Virus record (IMG/VR): IMGVR_UViG_3300030037_000004
Coordinates: 1-57,749 of that record
Source of the DNA: a virus
Taxonomy: Duplodnaviria; Caudoviricetes
Reading direction: 5' to 3' (one strand)
DNA: 57,749 nt
The first letter of the stretch is position 1, and each line of letters opens with the position of its first letter. The position numbers and the translations under genes were made by a program. Below are positions 5,647-49,170 of this stretch, piece by piece. The notes beneath the pieces are model-generated. The model was not told the origin of the DNA. It ran no database searches and was given only the letters and a program-made list of their open reading frames with translations.

Positions 5647-6065
5647 TTCTTTATACGCCCCAACAATAGAGGAGTTATCAGGCGTTTATAGCCCCAAATA
5701 GAAGCAAGCATTAAACCAACACATACTTGATACTCTACAGGCATCCCTTCCAGGACTTCGAACCCCGCTGTTATGTGCGGTACTGCTGGTGGAAAGAAAG
5801 ACAGAGGCACGGGTGAGAACATAATATAAAAGCTTATGTCATCCATCCATCCCGCATAACCTCGTGCGTTTGTGTCTTGGATTATATCTGCCTCTTGACC
5901 AGACTCGATCAAGTGCAGGTCAGACTTTAGCTTGGTACTACGGTCGTCATCCTTTTGCTTCAGACGTGCAGCACCTCGCTTTTTGTTGTCAGACCAAGCA
6001 CCTATCAGTGACTTAATTGCGCCAAAGATAGGTGTGAATAAAAGCGGGCTCATATGTTTGACCAC
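5643..6065 (-). CDS. Putative holin (3TM/GTA-holin-like)
   Basis: GWMDD...P..L.F.P...MPVEYQ...SIWG pattern with hydrophobic segments; close to the endolysin. Confidence 0.55.
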   Translation of the reverse strand: MVKHMSPLLFTPIFGAIKSLIGAWSDNKKRGAARLKQKDDDRSTKLKSDLHLIESGQEADIIQDTNARGYAGWMDDISFYIMFSPVPLSFFPPAVPHITAGFEVLEGMPVEYQVCVGLMLASIWGYKRLITPLLLGRIKK

Positions 6066-7538: not shown

Positions 7539-8052
7539 GAGATGTTACCCACTCTATGTTGATGGCGACCTCTTCCATTCTCTCCATGCGTAGCATAGAA
7601 GTAGTAACGGGAGTGATGCGGCCTTTGTTTGGTGTAAGTATACCGAAGCTATCACCCAAGAAGATAGGGTTCTGAGTACCGATATGTGTAGGTTGTAGCA
7701 TGTATTGAGACATGTTGCAGTCAAAGTCAAAGATAATGTCTGACCAGTGCTTGTACTGTGCTCCCCAGAATATCAGGTCAACATTACAACGGGTCTTGAT
7801 AACCCTAGCCACACGCTCAGTACCGTAGTTCTTGGGTAAGCTGTAGTTGGCTGGACACAAGTCTAGGTAAGACAAAGCGCTGTTTATCTCTAGCATCAAC
7901 TTCTCATCAGCACCCCAGATACACACATCAATGTCACGAGCAGTCAAGCCGTGGTACAAATCGCGTGCGTATCCTCCCATGATTCGGGACTAGGTAGTGA
8001 AGCGTCTCAACACCTGCATGACCTGTACTACTTCGTGGTCATCCAGGCGCAT
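7459..8052 (-). CDS. Nucleotidyltransferase (poly(A) polymerase/CCA-adding head domain-like), with in-frame TAG at 7990-7992
   Basis: GGYARD...RDIDV, VDLIF and FDCNM motifs. Frame reads MRLDDHEVVQVMQVLRRFTT*SRIMGGYARD from an ATG at 8052; the ORF track starts it at 7980. Confidence 0.75.
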
Positions 8053-9605
8053 GAGTTCTTACCTTGGCGTGCTTTAGAGTTAAGCTCTTTCAAGACAGCA
8101 GCCAAGCCAGTTTCTAGATCAGCTACCTTGTTCTCGATGTACGAGCCAGTACCAGCTAGATCATCAAAGGACTTGATTTCCTGCTTGATTCGACGAACGT
8201 ACACAGTCAACATCTCTGTGCTGGTGTCAGGGCCGATTTCTATACCGAAGATGCGGGTGAATTTTGCTACTGCTTTAGTTGAATAGTTCATGGTAGGTAT
8301 TTCCTTAGTTGGGTGTAAGCTTGTAGTGAGGGTTTCACTAGTGGCCTTACGGTTCTTCATGATTACAAATTTGTGTTCTGGCAACTCCATGGGCTCTAGG
8401 CTCATCTTGGTGCCGTCGGGGTGATGGAAATGGGCTAACAAGTCAATGTAGCGTGGCTTGCTAGATACTACCTTGCGTTCTGGTTCTGGGCTACAGGGCT
8501 GATCAAGCATGTGCTTATACAGAGACTTGAAGTCATTCTGGTACACCTTCACCTGTATTTCTTCTAGTTGGCGCGTGTACTCATCAACACTAGCCTTGTT
8601 CACGGTGTGGTTAGTACGGGTTAGCAATTCAATACGGTTACCATCTTCGTCCAAGGTTTCAAGCTCTTTGTGCAGTAATTGGTGGCACTTGTTCTCAGAC
8701 ACCGCAGATAGCGGCTTGTAAGGCTTACACATGTTATTCAGGACTTTACGTTCCTGACTCCCTAGGGCATCAAACTTGTGCTTACGTAGTAGGTTTTCCA
8801 AACGCGCGCTAGGGTAAGCTTCAGTGTACCGGATGATAGACTGAGCCACAGCCATGATAGCTTCATTCTCAGTCAAGATAGGTACAGCCATGATAGCTTC
8901 ATTCTCAGTCAAGACAGGTACAGGGGGTGCAGGAAAGAACTTGCCAGCTTCAACCAGTTCAGCTACGTGCTTGTCTAAAGCAGGCCAAAGTTTGCTAAAG
9001 TTGGTATTCTTTATCAGCTCGAAGTGCATAGCTATTGCTATCAAGCCGTCCTTCTCTAGTGGGTAGTCACCGGATGCAACATCCTTGTGTGCTCGGGGAG
9101 TACTAGCCCGCACCCATTGCTGAACCCAGGCGGTTAATTGCTCATCAAACTCGCCAGCCTTCTCAAGTTCAACACAAATGTCAGGGTTGCGCTCACGTAG
9201 CTTTATACGTACTCTTCGTGTGACATTCCCCAATGCTAGGCCATGTGGTGCCTTACGGGTAACTGCACACAAGCTAGCACGAGTCCGTACACAGAGTGCT
9301 CTTGTCTGACCACACAACTCTTGCAACATGCCGTGGTCGAAATCCGTCTCGCATTGTAGTGCAAACTGATTCACTAGTATGTCTACACTACTAGGAGACA
9401 ACATCACAGACATGACAGCACGTACTTCACGTGCCATTTCACGCTTGCTAACGGCACCACTGTGAGTCCCGTAAAGCTCATCTACTATCTCAGCAAGTAA
9501 ATCCAAGGTATTAGGTAGTGGGTTTGCCAGAGCGATAGATACATACTGGGCGTTACACATGGTTGTACGACACTTGTCGGCTATCATGGGGTAATTGTAC
9601 TGCAT
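8028..9605 (-). CDS. Large hypothetical protein (525 aa)
   Basis: Long ORF with GAGG RBS; no motif recognised. Confidence 0.8.
   Translation of the reverse strand: MQYNYPMIADKCRTTMCNAQYVSIALANPLPNTLDLLAEIVDELYGTHSGAVSKREMAREVRAVMSVMLSPSSVDILVNQFALQCETDFDHGMLQELCGQTRALCVRTRASLCAVTRKAPHGLALGNVTRRVRIKLRERNPDICVELEKAGEFDEQLTAWVQQWVRASTPRAHKDVASGDYPLEKDGLIAIAMHFELIKNTNFSKLWPALDKHVAELVEAGKFFPAPPVPVLTENEAIMAVPILTENEAIMAVAQSIIRYTEAYPSARLENLLRKHKFDALGSQERKVLNNMCKPYKPLSAVSENKCHQLLHKELETLDEDGNRIELLTRTNHTVNKASVDEYTRQLEEIQVKVYQNDFKSLYKHMLDQPCSPEPERKVVSSKPRYIDLLAHFHHPDGTKMSLEPMELPEHKFVIMKNRKATSETLTTSLHPTKEIPTMNYSTKAVAKFTRIFGIEIGPDTSTEMLTVYVRRIKQEIKSFDDLAGTGSYIENKVADLETGLAAVLKELNSKARQGKNSCAWMTTK
8848..8923. 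repeat. Tandem duplication, 36 bp unit x2 (P[VI]LTENEAIMAV)
   Basis: 8848-8883 and 8884-8919 differ at one base. Confidence 0.95.
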
Positions 9606-10659: not shown

Positions 10660-10862
10660 ACCATTAAATCCTTTTTATGGGTAGCTAGGAACCACCCAGA
10701 ATACAAAGATACTGCCGCTAACTCTCCAGATTCAGACCCATAGGCCATAGCTGCCCAAGTACCGCCAATGCTGGCTAAGTCTGCTTGAAACGCCGCGTCT
10801 GCGGTACCCCTACTAATCACTTCCTTAGCTCCTGCATCTACCACTTCTTTACTTAAGCTCAT
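10656..10862 (-). CDS. Hypothetical protein (68 aa)
   Basis: ATGA overlaps on both sides. Confidence 0.7.
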   Translation of the reverse strand: MSLSKEVVDAGAKEVISRGTADAAFQADLASIGGTWAAMAYGSESGELAAVSLYSGWFLATHKKDLMV

Positions 10863-11596
10863 GACATCACCTTCTTACACGTGAATTGGATTGTCTCAAG
10901 ATCTGCAATCACACCTAAGTGGTCACAGTACGTTTGTACTCCTTCAGCACCGGCTAGGTACATGCTTGCTACAGGCACAAACCCATCGTGCGGGCCAGTT
11001 AATCCTAAGTTAGCGTACCAAGATAGTGGATTCCAGAAAGAGAATTGCTTTGTCGTGTACATGGTAGTCATGTTTGGACAAGCTGCAGCCTTACCTTTGT
11101 CGTACTCTTGCAGGTGAGTTTGCAGGCAAGGGCTCTCAAGGGACTCTATAATGGTACTACCAAACATCAAGGCAGCAGCTTTTCGGCCAAGCGGCAGGTC
11201 ATCTACCCAATTTACTCCTTCATTGGGAGAACCAAGCTGTACTATTTGTTGGAACTTGTAGAACAAGGAAAGGTCTAGGTTGCGTAGTATTAACCCGCCC
11301 AAGCTATGACCAATACCAGCGAACTCTACGTCAACGTAGTTCAGGTCTAGTGCGTCCATGCGTTCATCAACCTGATGATCCACTTGCTCGCACACGTCTA
11401 GGAAGCTCTTCCCACGCGCATTATAGCTAACGGATAGTATATCTTTTGCGGGTACGCCCATGTTTATCAGCGTGCCTCGGAAGGCGACCATTGTTGAAGG
11501 CATACCGAGGGGTGTCAGGCCGTGGACTAACAAGTACAGCCGTCTTTTTGAGTTTGAGGTAGTCATTGTAGTATCCTTGTAAGTCTGCATCAGCAC
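10859..11596 (-). CDS. Alpha/beta hydrolase (lipase/esterase, PGAP1-like)
   Basis: LLVHGL oxyanion region, GHSLGG nucleophile elbow, LGSPNEG, HDGFV (Asp), DHLG (His); start may be 11566. Confidence 0.88.
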   Translation of the reverse strand: MLMQTYKDTTMTTSNSKRRLYLLVHGLTPLGMPSTMVAFRGTLINMGVPAKDILSVSYNARGKSFLDVCEQVDHQVDERMDALDLNYVDVEFAGIGHSLGGLILRNLDLSLFYKFQQIVQLGSPNEGVNWVDDLPLGRKAAALMFGSTIIESLESPCLQTHLQEYDKGKAAACPNMTTMYTTKQFSFWNPLSWYANLGLTGPHDGFVPVASMYLAGAEGVQTYCDHLGVIADLETIQFTCKKVMS

Positions 11597-11789: not shown

Positions 11790-12151
11790 ACGCTATCACC
11801 GTAAGTGTTGTTCATTTCACTTTCAAGTCTGGCCAACGAAGATTGAGTTACGGCTAATACAGGCTTGAGCCCGCCTGCGTTAACCATGCCACAATCACAA
11901 CTCTGTCTACGTATGGCAAGCTCTAGAGCGTTTACTGACAGCCGCAGTTGGCGACGCCTGTGTATAGCTATTTCTTTCTCTCGGGCCACAGCAGGATTTG
12001 GTTTCGCATCCTTTGTGGTACAAGTGTCCTGGGTAGCCTTTGTGTAATTTGGATGTTGTTTCACTAACCACACAAGTACTTTCTTTACTGCATTGCTTAC
12101 TACAGACATCACCATTAGAGCAGCGAGGTAGAACAGGTTTCTTATTCTCAT
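11786..12151 (-). CDS. Hypothetical protein with hydrophobic N-terminus (121 aa)
   Basis: AGGA RBS; ORF in the gene string. Confidence 0.65.
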   Translation of the reverse strand: MRIRNLFYLAALMVMSVVSNAVKKVLVWLVKQHPNYTKATQDTCTTKDAKPNPAVAREKEIAIHRRRQLRLSVNALELAIRRQSCDCGMVNAGGLKPVLAVTQSSLARLESEMNNTYGDSV

Positions 12152-12195
12152 CAGATTTTCCTAGTAACAGGTTAGTAATACGTTCATGAGGTTGA

Positions 12196-12405
12196 TCAAA
12201 GCGTTGATTCATGGATAACTCCACAGGCATAACGAAGGAATGGAAGACAAAGGATAGCAGCTATGCAACAAGGCACATTCCACCACCCAAGGTCACGTAT
12301 TAAGAAGGGCCATGCCATTACAAAGAACGCATAAAACATAGCGAACAAGCATAACAGGTAAGCCCTAAACTCACGCCAGGACATTATAGAACAGTCCAGC
12401 AACAA
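12196..12405 (-). CDS. Small membrane protein (start uncertain)
   Basis: Two hydrophobic segments. Confidence 0.5.
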   Translation of the reverse strand: MLLDCSIMSWREFRAYLLCLFAMFYAFFVMAWPFLIRDLGWWNVPCCIAAILCLPFLRYACGVIHESTL

Positions 12406-12504
12406 TGCAGATCATGGTGATTACTACAGTGGCGCAGACCCCACCCATAGGCTCAATGTTTGGAGCTTGGTAGTGATCTTTACCAGGTCGATAGTCGGGT
12501 AATT

Positions 12505-13023
12505 TCATACTAGTTCTTCCTTGTGCATCTTCTTAAGCGCGCCTTCTCTTTGTTGATAAGAACTGACACAGGATTGATGGTGCTGTCCTCTTGCAAGGTA
12601 CAGATGTTTTGTTTGACTTGATACAATGCGTCCTGGAAGCTGATCGACCTTTGCATCATGTAGTAACGCAATAGTATGCTCACTGTCTTGGTACCGCAAT
12701 TTGGTTGTTGATCCGGTTATATCGCAGGCTATAAGGCACTCGGTACTAGGGCGAAGCTGCTCATCAAGCTTGGCCATCCACTCCCTGAACTGTATCCAAC
12801 TAGTTTTAGCAGCGTTGTCTAGTGCTTGCTGGAAGTTATCGGCATCATGCTGGTTAATTTGATTGTCAAGGTAGTGCTTAGTAGTAGAAGTACAAGCTGG
12901 CAAAGACGGCGAGCCCAAAAGCCATAACCACAATGGGTACGATACAGCCAGAAGGATGACTATCCCCAGGAGCAAGCCTAGGACTATTTGTATTGGTTCC
13001 ATTATTAGTTTCCTCAGTTTCAC
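12505..13023 (-). CDS. Membrane-anchored hypothetical protein
   Basis: N-terminal TM helix; probable start at MEPIQ after GAGGA. Confidence 0.65.
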   Translation of the reverse strand: MKLRKLIMEPIQIVLGLLLGIVILLAVSYPLWLWLLGSPSLPACTSTTKHYLDNQINQHDADNFQQALDNAAKTSWIQFREWMAKLDEQLRPSTECLIACDITGSTTKLRYQDSEHTIALLHDAKVDQLPGRIVSSQTKHLYLARGQHHQSCVSSYQQREGALKKMHKEELV

Positions 13024-13306
13024 GGTAGGGTTTGCCAGGGTCTGTAAGGCTTAAGTCCTGCTCATACCTATCAGAATACAAGTCATTAAAATCTTTGAAG
13101 AACTTGCAGTACTGGGTATAGGTGACCTTAGGCAAGCTACCACCAGCCAGCACATAATCGTGATGGCTAGTGCCTTGGCAGTACGCCCTTAATACTTCAT
13201 CTTTAGCGGCAAATTGTATATGTGCATTACCGTTAAAGTGCGGTACTAGGAAGAAACCCATGAACGAGCCAGATTCATGGGTAAACTGCTTACCCATTGA
13301 GTGCAA
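12878..13306 (-). CDS. Hypothetical protein (142 aa)
   Basis: GGAG RBS; overlaps the downstream ORF. Confidence 0.55.
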   Translation of the reverse strand: MHSMGKQFTHESGSFMGFFLVPHFNGNAHIQFAAKDEVLRAYCQGTSHHDYVLAGGSLPKVTYTQYCKFFKDFNDLYSDRYEQDLSLTDPGKPYRETEETNNGTNTNSPRLAPGDSHPSGCIVPIVVMAFGLAVFASLYFYY

Positions 13307-13772
13307 GACCCACTCCAGGTGCTATAATAAAGCCAACTGGACTATTATCTGAGGGTTTCATAGCAGGTGCTATCGTGTCATATACGGACTCGCTAACCAT
13401 TTTACGGCCTCTGGAGTGCATATGTGACTTGTAATGCTCATACGTATCCTCAGTAGCTACCTTGAACTCTCGTGCAAGTGCGTACGCGTCATCGTTATCA
13501 AATACACACTCGTCATAGTATGAGTTGATTAGGTTATAGCCAGAACGAGACAGCTCATAGATAGACACATCACCCTTACGTAATAGGCGCAGGTCACCAA
13601 CAAGGGAGATATAAGTGTCATAGTCAAGACAATCAACAACATCAAGCACACCCTCGCTACACATTACCTTGTACTGGCCGTGTGTAATGGATTGTGCTTC
13701 ACAGTTAACGATTAAGCTGGTCTTACGAGGATTGCTTTTTAGTGCTAGGGTTAGTAGATCGAAGGTTATCAT
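13290..13772 (-). CDS. Hypothetical early protein (160 aa)
   Basis: TAAGGA RBS before the ATG at 13772. Confidence 0.8.
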   Translation of the reverse strand: MITFDLLTLALKSNPRKTSLIVNCEAQSITHGQYKVMCSEGVLDVVDCLDYDTYISLVGDLRLLRKGDVSIYELSRSGYNLINSYYDECVFDNDDAYALAREFKVATEDTYEHYKSHMHSRGRKMVSESVYDTIAPAMKPSDNSPVGFIIAPGVGLALNG

Positions 13773-13944
13773 ATGCTTTCCTTAGGGATAAGTAGGATAC
13801 TGGGGTGATCTGCAAGTGTGCAGGTAAGGTGCTGGTATACTCATTAAGGGTCTTGCCCTCTTTAGCGTACTCTCCAGCAAGTGTTTGTACTATCTGTGCC
13901 AGGTGACCAAGGGCGCGCCGTCTAGCTCTTTCAAGTGGCAACAC
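13723..13944 (-). CDS. Hypothetical early protein (73 aa)
   Basis: GGAGG RBS before GTG. Confidence 0.65.
   Translation of the reverse strand: MLPLERARRRALGHLAQIVQTLAGEYAKEGKTLNEYTSTLPAHLQITPVSYLSLRKAYDNLRSTNPSTKKQSS
13769..13794. repeat. 26 bp perfect inverted repeat, left copy (partner 14362-14387)
   Basis: TCATATGCTTTCCTTAGGGATAAGTA is the exact reverse complement of 14362-14387. Confidence 0.95.
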
Positions 13945-14233
13945 TGTTAACCTCCAGTATGTCTTGTCTTTCTACGATAGGGTGATTGGGCCATTTCTTG
14001 TCAATACTACCAAGTTTAACAGCCATAGGCTCTCGTGTCAGTGCCTTGTACTGTGCTTGGTTACGGATGACTAAGCTTGGGTCTACAAAGTCGTGGTAGT
14101 CACCATAGTCAAGCCCTAGCAAGCTACAGTGAGTAGCTACTTGGAGCTTAACCTGCATCATACTCTGACTTGCAGCGTGCTTTACCGTGTTAAGATCGTG
14201 CTGCTGCGTAGTTGATAGGTCATTGATACGCAT
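13931..14233 (-). CDS. Hypothetical early protein (~100 aa, MRIND...)
   Basis: GGAGG RBS before the ATG at 14233; the longer ORF-track start overlaps the upstream gene. Confidence 0.7.
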   Translation of the reverse strand: MRINDLSTTQQHDLNTVKHAASQSMMQVKLQVATHCSLLGLDYGDYHDFVDPSLVIRNQAQYKALTREPMAVKLGSIDKKWPNHPIVERQDILEVNSVAT

Positions 14234-14300
14234 TACATACCTCCAAGGTACATGATTGAACAGGTTAGGGTAGCCCAGCAACAGGCTTGGAATATGTAGT

Positions 14301-14576
14301 TTAGAATGGTACGTCTTCAGACTCATCACAAAGTATCTTGTAATCAGCTTCAAGTTTATTGTACTTATCCCTAAGGAAAGCATATGAGACGCCTTGGGCT
14401 ATAAAAGCTAGGGCTAGTTCTTCGGATAAAGCTTTGTTCAGGTCGGATCTATCCTTAACTTGCTGCTTCAGGTTATCACGAAACGACGCATCTCTAGTTA
14501 TAGCTTCGTTGCAGGCTTGTGATAGTGTGGGCTTGTCAGCTTCTGCTATACCTTCTAAGAATGTCTTAGTATTCAT
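14301..14576 (-). CDS. Hypothetical early protein (91 aa)
   Basis: TAAGGA RBS; first gene after the non-coding block; acidic DVPF C-terminus. Confidence 0.75.
   Translation of the reverse strand: MNTKTFLEGIAEADKPTLSQACNEAITRDASFRDNLKQQVKDRSDLNKALSEELALAFIAQGVSYAFLRDKYNKLEADYKILCDESEDVPF
14362..14387. repeat. 26 bp perfect inverted repeat, right copy
   Basis: TACTTATCCCTAAGGAAAGCATATGA. Confidence 0.95.
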
Positions 14577-14618
14577 GATAAGTCCTTAATAGTGGAGGAT
14601 AGGTTAGGATAGTACGTG

Positions 14619-14650
14619 GCCAGCTACCCTCTCGTGAGGATACAACTGGC
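14619..14650 (-). promoter_or_regulatory. Leader hairpin upstream of the first early gene
   Basis: GCCAGU-UG-UAUCCUC-ACGA-GAGGGUA-GCUGGC. Confidence 0.5.
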
Positions 14651-14813
14651 TATTCGCTCTGGTTTATGTACGCCCAATAGGGATATATCTAGTAGTCTGG
14701 TTTACTACTACCCGCTTCTAACGGCACAGCCCCTAGCCTGCTTAATGTTTTATAGTAATCACAAGGGAGGAGTTTGTGGCTACTTGGTACTGGATAGGGT
14801 TTGAGTCTTGTAC

Positions 14814-14827
14814 AGACTCCACCTATA
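14814..14827 (-). promoter_or_regulatory. Candidate phage RNAP promoter/initiation motif TATAGGTGGAGTCT
   Basis: Recurs at 10431-10444 and 18194-18206; its GAGTCT pairs with AGACTC (14803-14819). Confidence 0.5.
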
Positions 14828-14839
14828 TGTCTATCTATC

Positions 14840-14864
14840 TTTAAAGCAAGCGAAGCGCGGTAGC
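14840..14864. repeat. 25 bp element, exact inverted copy of 47181-47205
   Basis: TTTAAAGCAAGCGAAGCGCGGTAGC. Confidence 0.95.
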
Positions 14865-15029
14865 TTACCAGTATTTGCTTGTAATCTCTTGTACTTAGGA
14901 TGCAAGTCACCAGCTAGGAGCGACAGCGATACATCACATACTCTTTTAACCAACAGCAACCAAGGATAATACTGGATTGAGGCTGGATCACGGTGGATCG
15001 CAATGGATTGAATACTCATATGCACGCTC

Positions 15030-15400
15030 AGATTGGATATAATAGGGTTAGGGCGGGATTTCTCGGGATATTAAGGATAAGGGCAGGATAATCTAGATAA
15101 CACTCCCAATCTGGCTTAATCTGGCTCTCAGTGGTTAGCACTTAGATTGCACTAGATAGTACTAAGGGGTAAGAAGAGGGAAGATACTAAGATGCTATGG
15201 CTTTAGTCTGGCTTGCACTTGGCTAGGGTTAAGGATGTACTTGGTAGGGTTGGATAGTACTGTTATTAGCTTGCCGCCCTGGGCTGGCTAGGCTCTGGCT
15301 TGTTACTGGCTAAACTCAGGCTAGTTACTTGCTTGAACTGGCTTGTAGCTGGCTAGTGTGGCTAGGTCTGGCTTGTAGCTTGCTTGTACAGGCTTTAACT
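15030..15400. repeat. Degenerate helically phased repeat array (GGAT/AGAT then TGGCTWG units, ~10.5 bp period)
   Basis: GCT at 15287, 15298, 15309, 15320, 15331, 15341, 15352, 15361, 15371, 15382, 15392. Confidence 0.8.
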
Positions 15401-15577
15401 AGTGTGATCTACCTCCTTTACGATGAATTTGACTTTGACCCTGGCCTTTGCCCTGTTCACCTATCTTTTGACTTTGACTTTGGCACTTGCTTGTTTCACC
15501 GGAACGCTATAGAACTGTGGCTGCGCCTTCTCCTTTACTAGCTTTACCCTGGATATGACAGGATTGTACTAGAATGT

Positions 15578-15614
15578 AATGTACTACACCCTCAACATGA
15601 AGGTGCAGCGCATT
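15578..15614 (-). promoter_or_regulatory. Hairpin directly after the RNAP1 stop (processing or termination site)
   Basis: GCUGCACCUUCA-UGU-UGAGGGUGUAGU plus AAUG/CAUU; no U-tract. Confidence 0.5.
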
Positions 15615-15619
15615 CTACT

Positions 15620-17782
15620 CTACTTAGCAAAGAAGTAAGACTTGCCTGTGTTATCTAGCTTGTTCTCCAATTGGCCAACTAACTGTGCAAATGTGTGCTT
15701 TCCAACACCATCTAGGTCTCTATCACCATCTACATCGAACTGGCTCATCTTCTTGAGTATTGGAGTGGTTCTAGCACGTTCAACACCTTCAAAGTACAAC
15801 CCAACAATGTCTGTGCCTTGAGTCATATAACCTCTCTTTTCATTACACTCACTACCAAATATGGTCATGTATGCTGATTGTATGGCTCTGTGTAGCTTGC
15901 CGTCTATCATGTCATTGATGTTAACTCTAAAGCAGTCATGAACTGCAATGATATGTTGAGCACCTTCATCTTGTGCAAGATGGTTAATGATAAGTCTGGC
16001 TAGTAATGCATCCGTGGCTTGAATCAGGTTAACAAAGCCTGTTCTCATGTAATCACTCAAGCTATCCTTCTTAGTCCTGAATGTGATCTTCTTGAATGTG
16101 TGAGCCTTTGCAGCCCCAAATACTGTTACATCAGGTAGTTCAGTGTCGAATGTCACCAACTCACCATGCAGGTTAAGCTTAGTCTTGTAATTCATTGATA
16201 CATTGAAGCCATCAGGCATTAGGTGGCTAGTAGCTTGCTTAGTCATAAACATCAGGCCACCGTTCTCATCCTTACAAGCATGTGCTGCCTTGATACCCAC
16301 TCTCAAGTACTCCATCTTACCAAATGATGTCTCTATAGCTGCATGAAAGCGCTTGGCGTTCTTCTCCATTGACTTCATCGGGCCATTACTGATGATTTCT
16401 ATCAAGTGACGGAATGAATCAACAGCCATATCCTTCTCGCTAGGCAAGATAAACGCTTGATATGACTGACCATAGAAGATACCCATGTATGGCTTCTTGA
16501 TAACACTTCGAGGTATGTTGCCAAACCCTGCCGTAATACAAGCATCAGTAGCTAGTTTATAAGCGTCATCCAGTTGTTCTAATGTGAAGCCACAAGCAGC
16601 AGCAATACGTTGATCATTAGTCATTAATGCACCTAACTGAGGCCCACTACACTTAGCATCCAAGCCAAATGCCATGCCAATGTAAGGCTTAGCGAACTGT
16701 TCAGGTGCTTTCATGTGTCTAACTATTGCACGCCTGATATTGACTGCTTTCATCAATGACCATGGCTTCTTACACAAACTAGCCTGTCCAGCTAACAACT
16801 CACCAATGATAAACTGTGATGCTGATGTAACCTTGGCTAACTCTGCGTCCAAGTCCTTGAATGAGTGCATGTCCTCTATCTCAGCGTCTATGATTTGTAA
16901 CGCCTTAACACAGTTGTAATGCATCCCAACTCCATGTAAGTCCATCATTGCTCTTGCGAAGTCACTTGATTGCCCATTTGGCCCATGACATGCCGCTTGA
17001 TAGATACGACCTCTTGTATCACCAAAGAACTCACTAATACGTGCTACATTACCTTCAGCTATCAACACCTTACAGCCATCATACACGTATCTCTCGAACA
17101 CCTCATTACCCTTAACATTGGTAAGATCATGTGATACCTGCTCCTTGACCTTCTCAGCCACTTGCATCATGAACTCATCAACATTAAACACAGTTTGCTC
17201 TAGGTTATGTATTGCATCATCAAAGCACTTACTAGTCTTAGTACGAGTCTGCTTACGTCTAACTACCCAGCTAGCTTCATCAAACACTGCATCAGCACCT
17301 TGTAGCAAGCTATCGCCTTTGAACACACTTTGGTTCATCTTGACTATCTTGGCGGTGGCTAATGTTGGGTAATGTGGTAACTTCACCTTATCTAGTGATA
17401 GCAAGTACTCGCCTGCCTCTACCTCTTCACCATCTGTTACTATCAAGTCAGCACGTTCTAGTGCTTGTAACCAGTCTAGTGCCACTGCATCGTACTGCAT
17501 CTCACGGGGTACATCACCCTCTTGTAGCACGGTACCGCGTATGGCCTTATCCATCTTCTTGTGCCACCTAGCGTACCCGTACTCTATGTACTCTTGTGTA
17601 TCTAATAAAGCTGATGCTACTACTAAGCTGTCTGTTGTGCTCAAGCCTGCATTGAATAGCACTTGAACTATCGTGCTTATCTTACTGTCATCTGTTGTTA
17701 GTTGTGGCTTCATAGTTAAGATCTTATCAAGGTTAGTCATAGTTGTATTACTCTCGGTTGATGAAACATTAAGGTTAGACAT
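15620..17782 (-). CDS. Single-subunit DNA-dependent RNA polymerase 1 (divergent, 720 aa)
   Basis: DTRGRIY, motif A GLDAKCSGPQ, motif B RSVIKKPYMGIFYG, FVNLIQATDA, motif C VHDCF align by eye with T7 RNAP motifs; GGAG RBS. Confidence 0.88.
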   Translation of the reverse strand: MSNLNVSSTESNTTMTNLDKILTMKPQLTTDDSKISTIVQVLFNAGLSTTDSLVVASALLDTQEYIEYGYARWHKKMDKAIRGTVLQEGDVPREMQYDAVALDWLQALERADLIVTDGEEVEAGEYLLSLDKVKLPHYPTLATAKIVKMNQSVFKGDSLLQGADAVFDEASWVVRRKQTRTKTSKCFDDAIHNLEQTVFNVDEFMMQVAEKVKEQVSHDLTNVKGNEVFERYVYDGCKVLIAEGNVARISEFFGDTRGRIYQAACHGPNGQSSDFARAMMDLHGVGMHYNCVKALQIIDAEIEDMHSFKDLDAELAKVTSASQFIIGELLAGQASLCKKPWSLMKAVNIRRAIVRHMKAPEQFAKPYIGMAFGLDAKCSGPQLGALMTNDQRIAAACGFTLEQLDDAYKLATDACITAGFGNIPRSVIKKPYMGIFYGQSYQAFILPSEKDMAVDSFRHLIEIISNGPMKSMEKNAKRFHAAIETSFGKMEYLRVGIKAAHACKDENGGLMFMTKQATSHLMPDGFNVSMNYKTKLNLHGELVTFDTELPDVTVFGAAKAHTFKKITFRTKKDSLSDYMRTGFVNLIQATDALLARLIINHLAQDEGAQHIIAVHDCFRVNINDMIDGKLHRAIQSAYMTIFGSECNEKRGYMTQGTDIVGLYFEGVERARTTPILKKMSQFDVDGDRDLDGVGKHTFAQLVGQLENKLDNTGKSYFFAK

Positions 17783-17909: not shown

Positions 17910-18110
17910 TACAAGCCAATACTAGCCAACCCGACCTAATACTGGCTAATACAAGCCTTTACTACCTTGCCACTTCCTATAACTACCTAATACTACCCTG
18001 AACCTACCTTTCTTCTACCTTGTACCTACCTCGATCCTCCGCCTATGTTACCTCCTAGTACTACCTAGTTACTGCCTATAACTACCTAGAATAAACCTAG
18101 TACTAGCATA
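17910..18110. repeat. Degenerate helically phased repeat array (CWAGCC/CTACCT units, ~10-11 bp period) between AT-rich blocks
   Basis: Unit cores near 17916, 17926, 17935, 17946, 17956, 17965, 17976, 17986, 17996, 18007, 18018, 18029, 18039, then 18054-18107. Confidence 0.8.
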
Positions 18111-47090: not shown

Positions 47091-47130
47091 ACTAAACAGT
47101 ACTAGATAGTACTAGATAGAACTAAACAGT
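47091..47130. repeat. Four tandem 10 bp units (ACTARAYAGW) next to an AT-rich tract
   Basis: actaaacagt actagatagt actagataga actaaacagt. Confidence 0.9.
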
Positions 47131-47180
47131 TAATAATAACTAATAATAAATAATTAAAGACAAATCCTAAGTACTGGAGT

Positions 47181-47205
47181 GCTACCGCGCTTCGCTTGCT
47201 TTAAA
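47181..47205. repeat. 25 bp element, exact inverted copy of 14840-14864
   Basis: GCTACCGCGCTTCGCTTGCTTTAAA. Confidence 0.95.
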
Positions 47206-47310: not shown

Positions 47311-49170
47311 CTAGACGAAAAACTTTTCTAGATTGACCATGCTCTCTGGAGTCCAATCTCCAAGCCCCGTTACAGGCCCTAAATCGACCTCATACTTGGC
47401 TTCCCAATAGACCTTTAGCTCCTGCATATAGTTCCTTGAGTACAGCTCTATGAAGCAATCAACGATCAGACGGTACAATTCGGGTCTGTAATTTACATGT
47501 GTGGCAAAGGAATCATGAATGAAAACCATGGGTATACCAAGCAAGTCCATCTTCCTGGCTACCATGCGCAGGTGAGTAGCATCCAAGCTGTGTATGATGT
47601 TAGGTGCTATGGCTGACCTGTGCTTACGTGAACAAGGTAGCCGCTCGCTAAAGTCTTTGATCTGCAATTGGAACTCTTCACCATTGCTTAGCTTACATGC
47701 TAGTACCTTCTTAACTCCAGCCACCTTACGCTGTACACAGTTGAAGCCATCAGGTGTTATCCACTCAATGTCAACATTGCCAGCTTTGGCTATGGTAGCA
47801 GCAGCATCACTCACCCAACCGACAGCCTCAGACAGTTCGCCCAAGGTCTCATTAAGACTCTCATAGACTTCCTTGCCTAACTGGAAAGTTTCAGCACGCT
47901 CCAGCCCATCATCCTTATACACATACTTCTCTTCATCTACATCCCAGTACGAGGTAGCACCAAACAAGCTGGCCATATGATCAGCACTGGTTACCATCTT
48001 GGCATTGTATCCCCAAGTCATGACAGGGATCTTAGCCGCCTTCCTTGTAGCATAGTGCTTCTTGTCATCAGGTAGGGTTTGCTTCCACTTGTCTGCAATG
48101 TACTCATAGATGTCTAGGTCGTGCGCTTCCTCATGCATCCCAATGTGGCGGGTAATGGCATTCGAACGGGTTAAAGCGCTCCAGTGTTGCAGCCCTGAAC
48201 AACGCCCGTCTAGCGGTATAAAGGCTGGCAGGGGGCGATTCTTATCAATGTGGTACTCAGCTATCAGTTTTGCATTAGCGAGGTAACAGAAGGGCTTATC
48301 AGCCGTGTGCCACTCGTCAACGTACTTGCCTGGTTCACTGGCGTGCATCCACATTTGCTCAACAGACCACTCCTGTTCTGAATAGCCTTCGGTAGCCTCC
48401 AGCAGAGCGGCATATCCCACTTCTGAGAGGACTTGGGCATAACTTGGTATCAATAGTGCTTTCTCGTGATCGGCACCCTGAGGGCTAACACCGCAAGTCG
48501 TAGTCACATACATACGAGAGCGGGAGTCTAGGAAGTAAGGGAAACGGAATGCCTCTTCCTCAAGTACCTTTGCACTAGCTATGGTTCGCTGGTACATGCA
48601 AGACTTTACAATGTCCTTGGTAGCCTTGGGATACTTCTCTAGGTTCTCTTGTACAAACCTGTTAACAGTAAATTGTTCCTGTGCCATACGCTTAACTACA
48701 GCCGAAGTACGGATATTCTCATGACTCCTTATGCCACCACGGACAGCTATGTACGTACTTAGGTAGTCCTTGCCTACTATACGAGGCATGGTTACGGCAG
48801 AATCTGGGCCTACTACCTCACAGATTTTGAGCTTAAGTAGCTTACGGGTAGCCTCTACAGTGCGTTTATTAAAACCTGTAATGATTCTAACGTATCCTTG
48901 TAGCTCTAACTCGCCCATGAAGCGTAACGCCACAAGCATAGGTTGGTCAGCCTCCAGCATCTTCTTAGCCATAGCTGGTACTAACGTGTGCAATTCTGTG
49001 CCAAACAAGGCATGGAGTGAGAACAAGCAGTGTGTATAACAGCGTTGCCAGACTTCCCACTTCATCTTATCCCAACGGCGCTGGTTAACATCATCAAATC
49101 TAGTAATACCAGCCGCCCTTGCTGGCCTGGGTAGCTCAATGCCACCCTCCAGCTCTATCATTCCTACCAT
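47311..49170 (-). CDS. Single-subunit DNA-dependent RNA polymerase 2 (T7-like, 619 aa)
   Basis: LDSRSRMY, motif A PLDGRCSGLQHW, motif B RKAAKIPVMTWGY, WITPDGF, APNIIHSLDATH, motif C IHDSF. Confidence 0.95.
   Translation of the reverse strand: MVGMIELEGGIELPRPARAAGITRFDDVNQRRWDKMKWEVWQRCYTHCLFSLHALFGTELHTLVPAMAKKMLEADQPMLVALRFMGELELQGYVRIITGFNKRTVEATRKLLKLKICEVVGPDSAVTMPRIVGKDYLSTYIAVRGGIRSHENIRTSAVVKRMAQEQFTVNRFVQENLEKYPKATKDIVKSCMYQRTIASAKVLEEEAFRFPYFLDSRSRMYVTTTCGVSPQGADHEKALLIPSYAQVLSEVGYAALLEATEGYSEQEWSVEQMWMHASEPGKYVDEWHTADKPFCYLANAKLIAEYHIDKNRPLPAFIPLDGRCSGLQHWSALTRSNAITRHIGMHEEAHDLDIYEYIADKWKQTLPDDKKHYATRKAAKIPVMTWGYNAKMVTSADHMASLFGATSYWDVDEEKYVYKDDGLERAETFQLGKEVYESLNETLGELSEAVGWVSDAAATIAKAGNVDIEWITPDGFNCVQRKVAGVKKVLACKLSNGEEFQLQIKDFSERLPCSRKHRSAIAPNIIHSLDATHLRMVARKMDLLGIPMVFIHDSFATHVNYRPELYRLIVDCFIELYSRNYMQELKVYWEAKYEVDLGPVTGLGDWTPESMVNLEKFFV

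Follow-up and report, generated by a model that had tools for sequence, protein, structure and literature searches.

Why does a small phage gene carry within its coding sequence an exact reverse complement of the ribosome-binding site and start codon of another gene, a few hundred nucleotides downstream? The question is raised by the complete genome of a marine phage, here termed the window (57,749 nt, the whole of the stretch analysed). The original prediction was that the two segments could pair in the mRNA and silence the downstream gene or, alternatively, that they bound an invertible piece of DNA. Below, the repeat is described first, then its predicted effect on translation, its fate in related genomes and the ways in which it may have arisen.

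The inverted repeat and the genes around it

The segments at positions 13769-13794 and 14362-14387 are reverse complements of each other at 26 of 26 positions, with 567 nt between them, just as first reported. Read on the minus strand, the upstream arm (14387 to 14362) is TCATATGCTTTCCTTAGGGATAAGTA and the downstream arm (13794 to 13769) is TACTTATCCCTAAGGAAAGCATATGA. A search of the window for this 26-mer, allowing up to 3 mismatches, returned only the two arms, a count of two being reached in none of 100 dinucleotide shuffles; in IMG/VR no copy was found outside the window. In random genomes of the same size generated by a first-order Markov model, the longest perfect inverted repeat measured 14-21 nt, with 22 nt or more in none of 20, and by our own arithmetic about 4e-7 pairs of 26 nt are expected by chance in 57.6 kb. 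Only three perfect inverted repeats of at least 16 nt exist in the whole genome, so that such repeats are not its general style. A second long inverted repeat joins two intergenic regions (14840-14876 and 47169-47205).

Alignment of the 26-nt repeat can be extended to 60 nt at 75%, a score reached by 4% of random position pairs, and complementarity in the inner flank amounts to 3/5. The possibility that the arms are remnants of a longer, ancient repeat was rejected, as the extension is not significant and rests on CTAG-containing words common in both genes. The edges of the repeat are therefore sharp.

Both arms fall within a group of four small genes on the minus strand, designated A to D. 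Gene A (14301-14576), an ORFan of 91 aa, has an AAGGA Shine-Dalgarno (SD) sequence and a codon score of 0.33. Gene B (13931-14233) encodes 100 aa from an ATG behind GGAGG and scores 0.15. Gene C (13723-13944; 73 codons) is a probable gene, with a GTG start behind GGAGG that overlaps the gene B stop; its codon score is -0.06 overall and positive in the 5' part only, and it overlaps the start of gene D by 50 nt. Gene D (13290-13772) is an ORFan of 160 aa; its codon score of 0.25 is gene-like, 18 long genes scoring 0.28-0.49. Directly 3' of its stop, a terminator-like hairpin with a T-tract (13256-13282, minus strand) may mark the end of an A-B-C-D unit; as a pattern match it is weak, such sites being found twice against 2.0 expected in shuffles, and the scan gave no such site between the arms on the minus strand. 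On the other side of the group, a non-coding leader of 1,043 nt (14577-15619, minus strand) containing degenerate short repeats separates gene A from the gene for RNA polymerase 1 (15620-17782). The genome encodes two T7-like RNA polymerases. Across the whole window, an Rfam search returned 0 matches and a tRNA search 0 genes.

The upstream arm (14362-14387, minus strand), the reverse complement of the gene D translation-initiation region, had been placed inside the first early gene. It does lie in frame within gene A, where it makes up codons 64-71 and 2 nt of codon 72 (S-Y-A-F-L-R-D-K-Y); gene A, being the first ORF after the polymerase gene and the ~1-kb non-coding stretch, may be the first early gene. 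The downstream arm (13769-13794, minus strand) is, as claimed, the initiation region of the 160-aa gene: within it, 6 nt separate the SD (AAGGA, 13783-13779) from the ATG of gene D (13772-13770), one more base of gene D follows, and the arm at the same time forms codons 51-59 of gene C. Gene A ends within the 567-nt loop between the arms (13795-14361, minus strand), which takes in its final 20 codons; a 67-nt spacer, gene B and gene C as far as codon 50 follow.

None of genes A-D matched a PHROG or a Pfam family. The AlphaFold model of gene D has a pLDDT of 36, and comparison with the Atlas gave only matches with TM < 0.4, on a model with a pLDDT of 0.38, none of them usable. The suggestion that gene D is a toxic host-takeover gene thus found no support in these searches.

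Predicted pairing and its possible consequences for gene D

In RNA form, the arms are predicted to pair into a 26-bp duplex of -42.3 kcal/mol, which is part of both the MFE fold and the centroid fold calculated for a 751-nt transcript (z = -5.85; 0 of 20 shuffles fold as well). With both arms present, the unpaired probability is 0.00 for all 17 bases from the SD to the AUG of gene D. When the upstream arm is left out, these bases have unpaired probabilities of 0.04-0.91 in a transcript from 14300 to 13650 and of 0.02-0.93 in one from 13960 to 13650. In the predicted ensemble, then, the duplex fully occludes the gene D start site.

The two arms share one strand, and parts of the region are covered by RNA-library contigs, a type of sequence that cannot show transcript ends. 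Provided that the arms are co-transcribed, any transcript carrying both would be closed by the 26-bp duplex into a 567-nt loop, hiding the SD and AUG of gene D. For a 30S subunit, gene D would then be accessible only in the moment after one of the arms had been unwound, either the upstream arm by ribosomes translating gene A or the downstream arm by ribosomes translating gene C. The output of gene D would be lowered and coupled to upstream translation, in the manner of the Min Jou interaction of phage MS2. A perfect 26-bp helix would also be long enough to serve as a substrate for host RNase III: it exceeds the ~20 bp of an RNase III processing site, but is not a local intercistronic hairpin, its arms being 567 nt apart and inside ORFs. 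Of the original claim that the duplex could silence the 160-aa gene, the hiding of the start is reproduced in the folds; no sign was found of a selected device.

Helices acting on initiation or processing are familiar from other phages. A helix may hide the SD and AUG until they are released by another transcript or by cleavage; examples are RBS sequestration in T4 (gene e, soc and I-TevI, on early transcripts) and the RNase III sites of the T7 early mRNA, host RNase III cutting helices of about two turns. Those of T4 and T7 are local hairpins, conserved and mismatched, whereas here the arms are separated by 567 nt with no internal promoter found between them, and no RNase III gene was found in the present phage genome. 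An internal promoter between the arms, which would have allowed an early/late switch of the T4 type, was rejected when a sigma-70 scan gave 4 sites against 4.8 expected. A 16-nt word present three times in the early region and the word TAGTACTAYCTAGT, present in several gaps, were both unconvincing as promoters, and neither is placed so as to free the gene D ribosome-binding site (RBS).

In MS2, as set out in the sections of PMC11339067 that deal with this interaction, a segment of the coat gene (1427-1433) forms 7 pairs with the replicase RBS (1738-1744), and translation through the coat segment exposes the replicase start, the melting barrier being ~8.7 kcal/mol. The likeness to the present locus is that a coding segment of an upstream cistron pairs with a downstream RBS a few hundred nucleotides away. 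The differences are that the helix predicted here has 26 perfect pairs and -42 kcal/mol, would form in the mRNA of a dsDNA phage and has two further genes in its loop. Moreover, the MS2 interaction belongs to an RNA phage genome, is conserved and was proven by nonsense-polarity tests, while the present one is predicted from sequence and is not conserved.

Distant relatives and a nearly identical strain

In a blastn search, 13200-14900 matched none of 50,697 phage records. Genes A and D, searched among 5.8 billion proteins, returned only themselves, and gene D gave 6 pattern matches but 0 relatives in IMG/VR. Neither gene thus has a homologue to offer for the covariation check that had been suggested. 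RNA polymerase 1 led to relatives with identities of only 36-46%, and an equivalent RBS-covering repeat occurs in 0 of the 5 distant relatives examined. In relatives L005 and L010 a stem of 27 nt (93%) lies just upstream of the SD of the first small ORF. An I2-like repeat was looked for in relative G001 and not found.

A much closer comparison is afforded by a second strain, represented by RNA-library contigs from one sample of another study (one spanning contig for X3, two contigs with agreeing loose ends for X2). This strain is 99-100% identical to the window over 12000-14795, as judged from contigs that leave 13364-13800 (with the downstream arm) and 14869-16500 uncovered and in which cDNA chimeras are possible; upstream of 14795 its sequence diverges from the window. 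It retains 9 + 6 nt of the upstream arm, but the 11 central letters (14368-14378), which make up the anti-SD part, are replaced by 44 others, a net gain of 33 nt. By our own reading the replacement preserves the gene A frame and brings in no stop codon. Of its 44 letters, 28 are the reverse complement of a sequence that recurs right after 14795 in the strain's own leader; this 28-mer has no match in the window with 3 mismatches or fewer, and none in IMG/VR. From these sequences, the second strain looks to be derived from a copy-bearing state through a second inverted copy. Thus, the repeat was not conserved even at ~99% identity, and because the SD-pairing centre has been overwritten by a different inverted copy, the arrangement is best read as evolutionarily labile, not as a conserved switch.

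Origin of the repeat and competing explanations

In our view the best explanation, held with about equal measures of confidence and doubt, is that the upstream arm is a one-step template-switch copy, labile in evolution, which would couple translation of gene D to ribosome traffic. A single templated event (a template switch during replication or an inverted duplication) would have overwritten a few codons of gene A, the source being the gene D initiation region and the copy landing 593 nt upstream on the same strand. A templated copy is suggested because perfect identity and sharp edges are its signature, and the repeat shows both, with every pair matched and flanks that are not significantly complementary. 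Such an origin is most likely, in preference to gradual selection for pairing. Template switching can create perfect stems in one event, according to the relevant sections of Monttinen & Loytynoja 2022 (PMC8794818). The present repeat resembles the mutations described there in being a perfect, sharp-edged reverse-complement copy that would give an RNA helix instantly; it differs in that those sections concern the stems of RNA genes, whereas here the copy is in a protein-coding gene and the source RBS lies 593 nt off, a distance that counts against a template switch.

As for the direction of copying, the upstream arm is probably the copy, because the SD and ATG that it recreates on the plus strand precede just 6 codons, and the downstream arm the source, because its working SD-N6-ATG stands before a frame of 160 codons whose codon score is gene-like. 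Codon rarity was uninformative in this respect, mean synonymous-codon usage of each arm (0.44 in gene A, 0.29 in gene C) being near the mean of its gene (0.40 and 0.33, respectively). A search for a reverse transcriptase, made with a DGR-like process in mind, gave only one sub-threshold match of 11 bits.

It is possible, if somewhat doubtful, that the pairing has been maintained by selection however it arose, so that gene D would stay silent on naked early transcripts until ribosomes on gene A or C open the helix or RNase III cuts it; the pairing would by now serve as a timer or coupler. The duplex spans exactly the SD, spacer and AUG, something that a random 26-nt copy would do for the whole SD-AUG about 3% of the time by our own estimate (11 placements x 67 genes / 57.6 kb, for either arm); this low figure counts against accident and favours some selection for RBS pairing. 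The predicted occlusion is complete in the ensemble. Transcripts made by T7-like polymerases outrun ribosomes, and the phage's own polymerases of this kind would give long-range helices time to form. The placement of each arm inside a translated ORF is that of the Min Jou coupling, as described in the sections of PMC11339067 cited above. The second strain, too, counts against accident: along with the retained 9 + 6 nt, the same gene A codons hold one arm of another perfect inverted repeat, no shorter than 28 nt and able to form a perfect long-range helix of 28 bp or more. Pairing at this site could consequently be selected, not accidental, and the stem upstream of the first small ORF in L005 and L010 goes in the same direction. 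On the other hand, conservation and covariation are lacking, with no homologues of A and D and no RBS-covering repeat among the five relatives, and the anti-SD centre is lost in the near-identical strain. Furthermore, 26 perfect pairs go far beyond regulatory need if the 7 pairs and ~8.7 kcal/mol given for Min Jou in PMC11339067 are a guide, and for gene D no function was found that demands tight control.

The recurrence of inverted copies can be carried one step further by supposing that gene A holds, at codons 64-72, a re-writable cis-antisense slot. In strains otherwise ~99% identical, template switching would write into it perfect inverted copies, 26 nt or longer, of various stretches of one early transcript, and selection would keep those that rewire early gene expression. 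The present genome would then carry in its slot a copy of the gene D SD/AUG, the RNA-library strain a copy of the 5' leader, and the copies kept would act by RBS masking or by making RNase III-sized helices. We regard this as unlikely.

Improbable, though two identical 26-bp sites 593 bp apart might invite it, is the notion that the arms are bound by a protein at the DNA level, as an operator or looping pair or as promoter-like elements, or that they are the ends of a small mobile element. The other long inverted pair of the genome, which connects intergenic regions, could be a protein site; the present arms, however, are both within coding sequence, exist in only 2 copies, carry no sigma-70-like or recurring intergenic motif and are identical over 26 base pairs, which protein sites rarely need. 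With regard to a mobile element, the flanks differ, which means that there is no target-site duplication, and pieces of three ordinary small genes make up the interior, which has no transposase. Nor does the repeat behave as a miniature inverted-repeat element, given its differing flanks and its two arms, with none elsewhere in IMG/VR.

That the arms are recombination sites bounding an invertible 567-bp segment, the alternative raised in the original prediction, must be considered very improbable. Segments of the Hin/Gin/Cin type measure 0.5-3 kb and are flanked by inverted repeats of ~26-34 bp, the Hin and Gin sites having dyad symmetry. The present locus resembles them in having short, perfect inverted repeats around a segment of the 0.5-kb class. 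By our reading, gene A would, after an inversion, stop at a TAG directly behind the arm, and the 5' part of gene C would be joined to an open frame of 76 codons that runs antisense to gene A (plus-strand ORF 14359-14589). Yet the arms lie inside ORFs, inversion would move gene B to a strand with no other genes, and the 26-mer, read directly, lacks internal dyad symmetry (4/13 positions). The earlier impression that the genome has no recombinase was confirmed by searches for serine (PF00239) and tyrosine (PF00589) recombinases, which gave 0 matches at E <= 0.1 in the complete genome, with controls positive in 13 and 14 of 14 genomes. The DNA contig and an independent RNA-library contig (13801-14367, window orientation) agree in showing a single orientation. 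The joints listed in four runs amount to one, a collinear replacement, and none switches strand, in contigs that tend to drop rare forms.

Finally, an assembly artefact is hardly credible: the record is a metagenome assembly and the full 26-mer is seen only in the window's DNA contig, but the repeat is shorter than the k-mers involved (31 in Logan, with a 127-nt end overlap pointing to k = 127), that contig is one piece at a depth of 138, both arms are in frame in ORFs with normal codon scores, and independent RNA-library contigs confirm 14325-14367 and 14379-14796, including 6 + 9 nt of the upstream arm.

Should the duplex act as predicted, the early operon of a dsDNA phage would provide an unusually extreme case of long-range RBS occlusion, with 26 perfect pairs that bridge two genes and 567 nt, and a cis-antisense regulator would have been born by template switching in one mutational step. 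The near-identical strain, in which the anti-SD segment is overwritten, constitutes a natural control. If gene A does contain a re-writable slot, it would offer the phage a fast way to re-programme a host-takeover operon. Even if the duplex is without effect, the repeat would still be a clean templated inverted duplication, recurring at one site in a phage genome, and a caution for the reading of perfect stems as evidence of function.

Early region of the phage

The genome is a complete virus record of 57,749 bp from seawater, whose first and last 127 bases are the same (overlap of a circular assembly). Every long ORF is on the - strand, and the proteins encoded include tail sheath, baseplate wedge, portal, major head protein and large terminase, along with a primase/helicase and a ribonucleotide reductase. 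Two single-subunit, T7-like RNA polymerases are encoded. The divergent RNAP1 (15620-17782, - strand, 720 aa), recognized by phrog_414 (E = 1e-24) and without a match in a Pfam search, stands ahead of a row of small ORFan genes; the more typical RNAP2 (47311-49170, - strand, 619 aa; PF00940, E = 4e-48) immediately precedes the genes for terminase and structural proteins. A 52.5-kb relative (G001; loci L006, 6001-7977, and L013) likewise carries both. Among cultured phages, RNAP1 has its nearest counterparts in myophages of Erwinia, Pantoea and Escherichia, with 25-27% identity across 70% of its length; metagenomic relatives reach 36-46% identity at most.

Following RNAP1 on the - strand are 1,043 nt free of ORFs (15619-14577), then the small genes headed by gene A. 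This leader is rich in degenerate short direct repeats (AAGCCAG / TAGCCAG-like; families D1 and D2) and searches of it for Rfam families and tRNAs came back empty. In G001 and in the distant relative L005, RNAP1 is followed by a comparable gap (about 0.8-1 kb). Large intergenic gaps repeatedly contain the near-palindromic word TAGTACTAYCTAGT, with two tandem copies before the first late gene (47109-47126, - strand), one in the early leader (15151-15164, - strand) and two on the other strand upstream of RNAP1 (18056-18090, + strand); we regard it as a candidate regulatory element or promoter. Elsewhere in the early region, a 245-aa protein (10859-11596, - strand) matches Palm_thioest (PF02089) barely over the Pfam cut-off (28.1 vs 26.8 bits) and may have an alpha/beta-hydrolase-like fold. 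A 36-nt tandem duplication (8848-8919, copies 97% identical) lies in frame within a 525-aa ORF (8028-9605) that has no PHROG family.

Four small genes on the - strand concern us here. Codon scores, which express the gene-likeness of codon usage, are 0.28-0.49 in the 18 long training genes used as reference. Gene A (14576->14301, 91 aa) has the Shine-Dalgarno sequence (SD) AAGGA and scores 0.33; gene B (14233->13931, 100 aa) has the SD GGAGG and scores 0.15. Gene C (13944->13723, 73 codons) starts with GTG behind GGAGG, overlaps the stop of gene B and scores positively in its 5' part only. Gene D (13772->13290, 160 aa; SD AAGGA with a 6-nt spacer) scores 0.25, and its stop is followed by a terminator-like hairpin and T-tract. 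A 76-codon frame open antisense to all of gene A (14359-14589, + strand) has a codon score of about 0 and is probably not a gene. Genes A and D found no homologues except themselves among 5.8 billion proteins. Gene D has no PHROG or Pfam family, its AlphaFold model is unusable (pLDDT 36) and an Atlas structure comparison gave no lead, leaving the proposal that it is a toxic host-takeover gene without support.

The inverted repeat and its predicted duplex

On the - strand, 14387->14362 reads TCATATGCTTTCCTTAGGGATAAGTA (upstream arm) and 13794->13769 reads TACTTATCCCTAAGGAAAGCATATGA (downstream arm). The two are reverse complements without a single mismatch and stand 567 nt apart. At up to 3 mismatches, the 26-mer occurs in the window at the two arm sites only, and none of 100 shuffles yielded two matches. 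The genome contains just three perfect inverted repeats of at least 16 nt (26, 25 and 18 nt), and the longest in each of 20 random genomes measured 14-21 nt. Complementarity ends at the edges of the 26 nt: a 60-nt, 75% extension has a score that is also attained by 4% of random position pairs. The upstream arm corresponds to codons 64-72 of gene A, placing it inside a coding sequence as originally predicted. The downstream arm comprises the SD, spacer and ATG of gene D plus one further base, again as predicted; it doubles as codons 51-59 of gene C, a feature absent from the earlier account.

The 25-nt perfect repeat (14840-14864 / 47181-47205) is part of a second outlier of 37 nt and 89% identity, which includes the mini-hairpin word GCGAAGCGC. 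One arm (14840-14876) lies in the leader before gene A and the other (47169-47205) 32 kb away, in the 372-nt gap after RNAP2 and before the late genes. The repeat was not found in G001; the arms could represent a promoter or protein site present in opposite orientations.

Paired in RNA, the two arms would form a 26-bp helix with a computed energy of -42.3 kcal/mol. In a 751-nt fold the helix is present in both the MFE and centroid structures (z = -5.85; 0/20 shuffles fold as well), and no terminator-like site was found between the arms on the - strand. In a 971-nt transcript with both arms, the unpaired probability is 0.00 for every base from SD to AUG of gene D, against 0.04-0.91 in transcripts starting downstream of the upstream arm. 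The physical premise that a long-range duplex could hide this start is thus sound. Translation of gene A would open the upstream arm, and translation of gene C the downstream one. The predicted logic, a long-range pairing opened by ribosomes, is that of the Min Jou interaction of phage MS2, in which replicase translation depends on coat translation through 7 pairs about 300 nt apart (PMC11339067). By comparison, the helix predicted here has nearly four times the length and about five times the stability.

A second strain and distant relatives

RNA-library contigs from another study represent a second strain, 99-100% identical to the window over 12000-14795. Runs X2 and X3 derive from one sample, and X4 from another, without coverage of the upstream-arm site. 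In this strain the 11 letters 14368-14378 are swapped for 44 different letters. Within the upstream arm, the replaced segment coincides exactly with the partner of 13778-13788, where the SD of gene D lies. X3 has one contig running across this site; in X2, two contigs break off at it with overlapping loose ends that give the same 44 letters. The replacement adds 33 nt and, from our reading of the loose ends, leaves gene A in frame without a stop. Of the new letters, 28 recur as reverse complement immediately after 14795, where the strain's leader departs from the window; by eye, a further 8-9 letters are likewise similar to the shared leader, apart from one indel. This 28-mer is absent from the window at up to 3 mismatches and from IMG/VR. 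In these contigs, which come from one sample and leave the downstream arm outside coverage, the helix over the SD is broken by loss of the arm centre, and the same gene A codons take part in another long-range helix, perfect over at least 28 bp and with a loop of about 430 nt. Since 6 + 9 letters of the upstream arm are retained, the second strain most simply derives from a state with the full 26-mer. X2 also shows four differences from the window inside a 30-nt stretch of gene C (13844, 13862, 13867, 13873), near the downstream arm, against 0-3 differences per contig elsewhere; this is either a mutation cluster or a recombination patch.

DNA similar to the arm region was found in neither the phage collection nor IMG/VR, and a long repeat over a ribosome-binding site (RBS) is absent from the early region in all five distant relatives examined (L005, L010, L009, L011, and G001 via L014). 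L005 and L010 share a 27-nt leader inverted repeat (93%, 101-nt loop; 8818-8844 / 8946-8972 and 5857-5883 / 5985-6011, respectively). Its 3' arm stops 4 nt ahead of the SD of a 33-codon first ORF, read by eye, and a third, partial copy lies right behind the RNA polymerase stop.

Origin of the repeat

The perfect copy and abrupt ends point to a templated event, and template switching during replication makes perfect stems in one step (PMC8794818). We give about even chances to a templated copy that has a side effect at the RNA level, selection being unproven. Copying probably ran from the gene D RBS into gene A, because the downstream arm forms a functional start site whereas the same start site, read on the other strand of the upstream arm, leads to six codons only. 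Existing inverted repeats are known hotspots of template switching, so the second inverted copy, laid over the anti-SD part in the near-identical strain, fits a site prone to such events.

That the repeat is a selected control element seems possible, though distinctly less probable. By our estimate a random 26-nt copy would span an entire SD-AUG in only about 3% of cases, and a long perfect helix exists at this gene A site in both strains; both facts count against pure accident. The overwriting of the anti-SD part, on the other hand, argues against an indispensable switch.

Inversion, protein sites or a mobile element, and artefact are improbable even taken together. The original prediction had allowed that the repeats bound an invertible segment while seeing no recombinase; indeed, resolvase and phage-integrase families gave 0 matches at E <= 0.1 in the complete genome (both searches were positive in 13-14 of 14 control genomes), which also encodes no reverse transcriptase. 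The DNA contig of the probable source run and an independent RNA-library contig (13801-14367) both have the window orientation, the sole joint listed replaces sequence collinearly, without any change of strand (among contigs, which a rare form could escape), and the 26-mer lacks internal dyad symmetry (4/13 positions). A small mobile element was rejected, there being no target-site duplication and no further copy.

If the repeat arose by templated copying, the helix would be a by-product. It may offer an RNase III-sized target, the phage genome itself having no RNase III gene, and it would lower translation of gene D and couple it to translation upstream.
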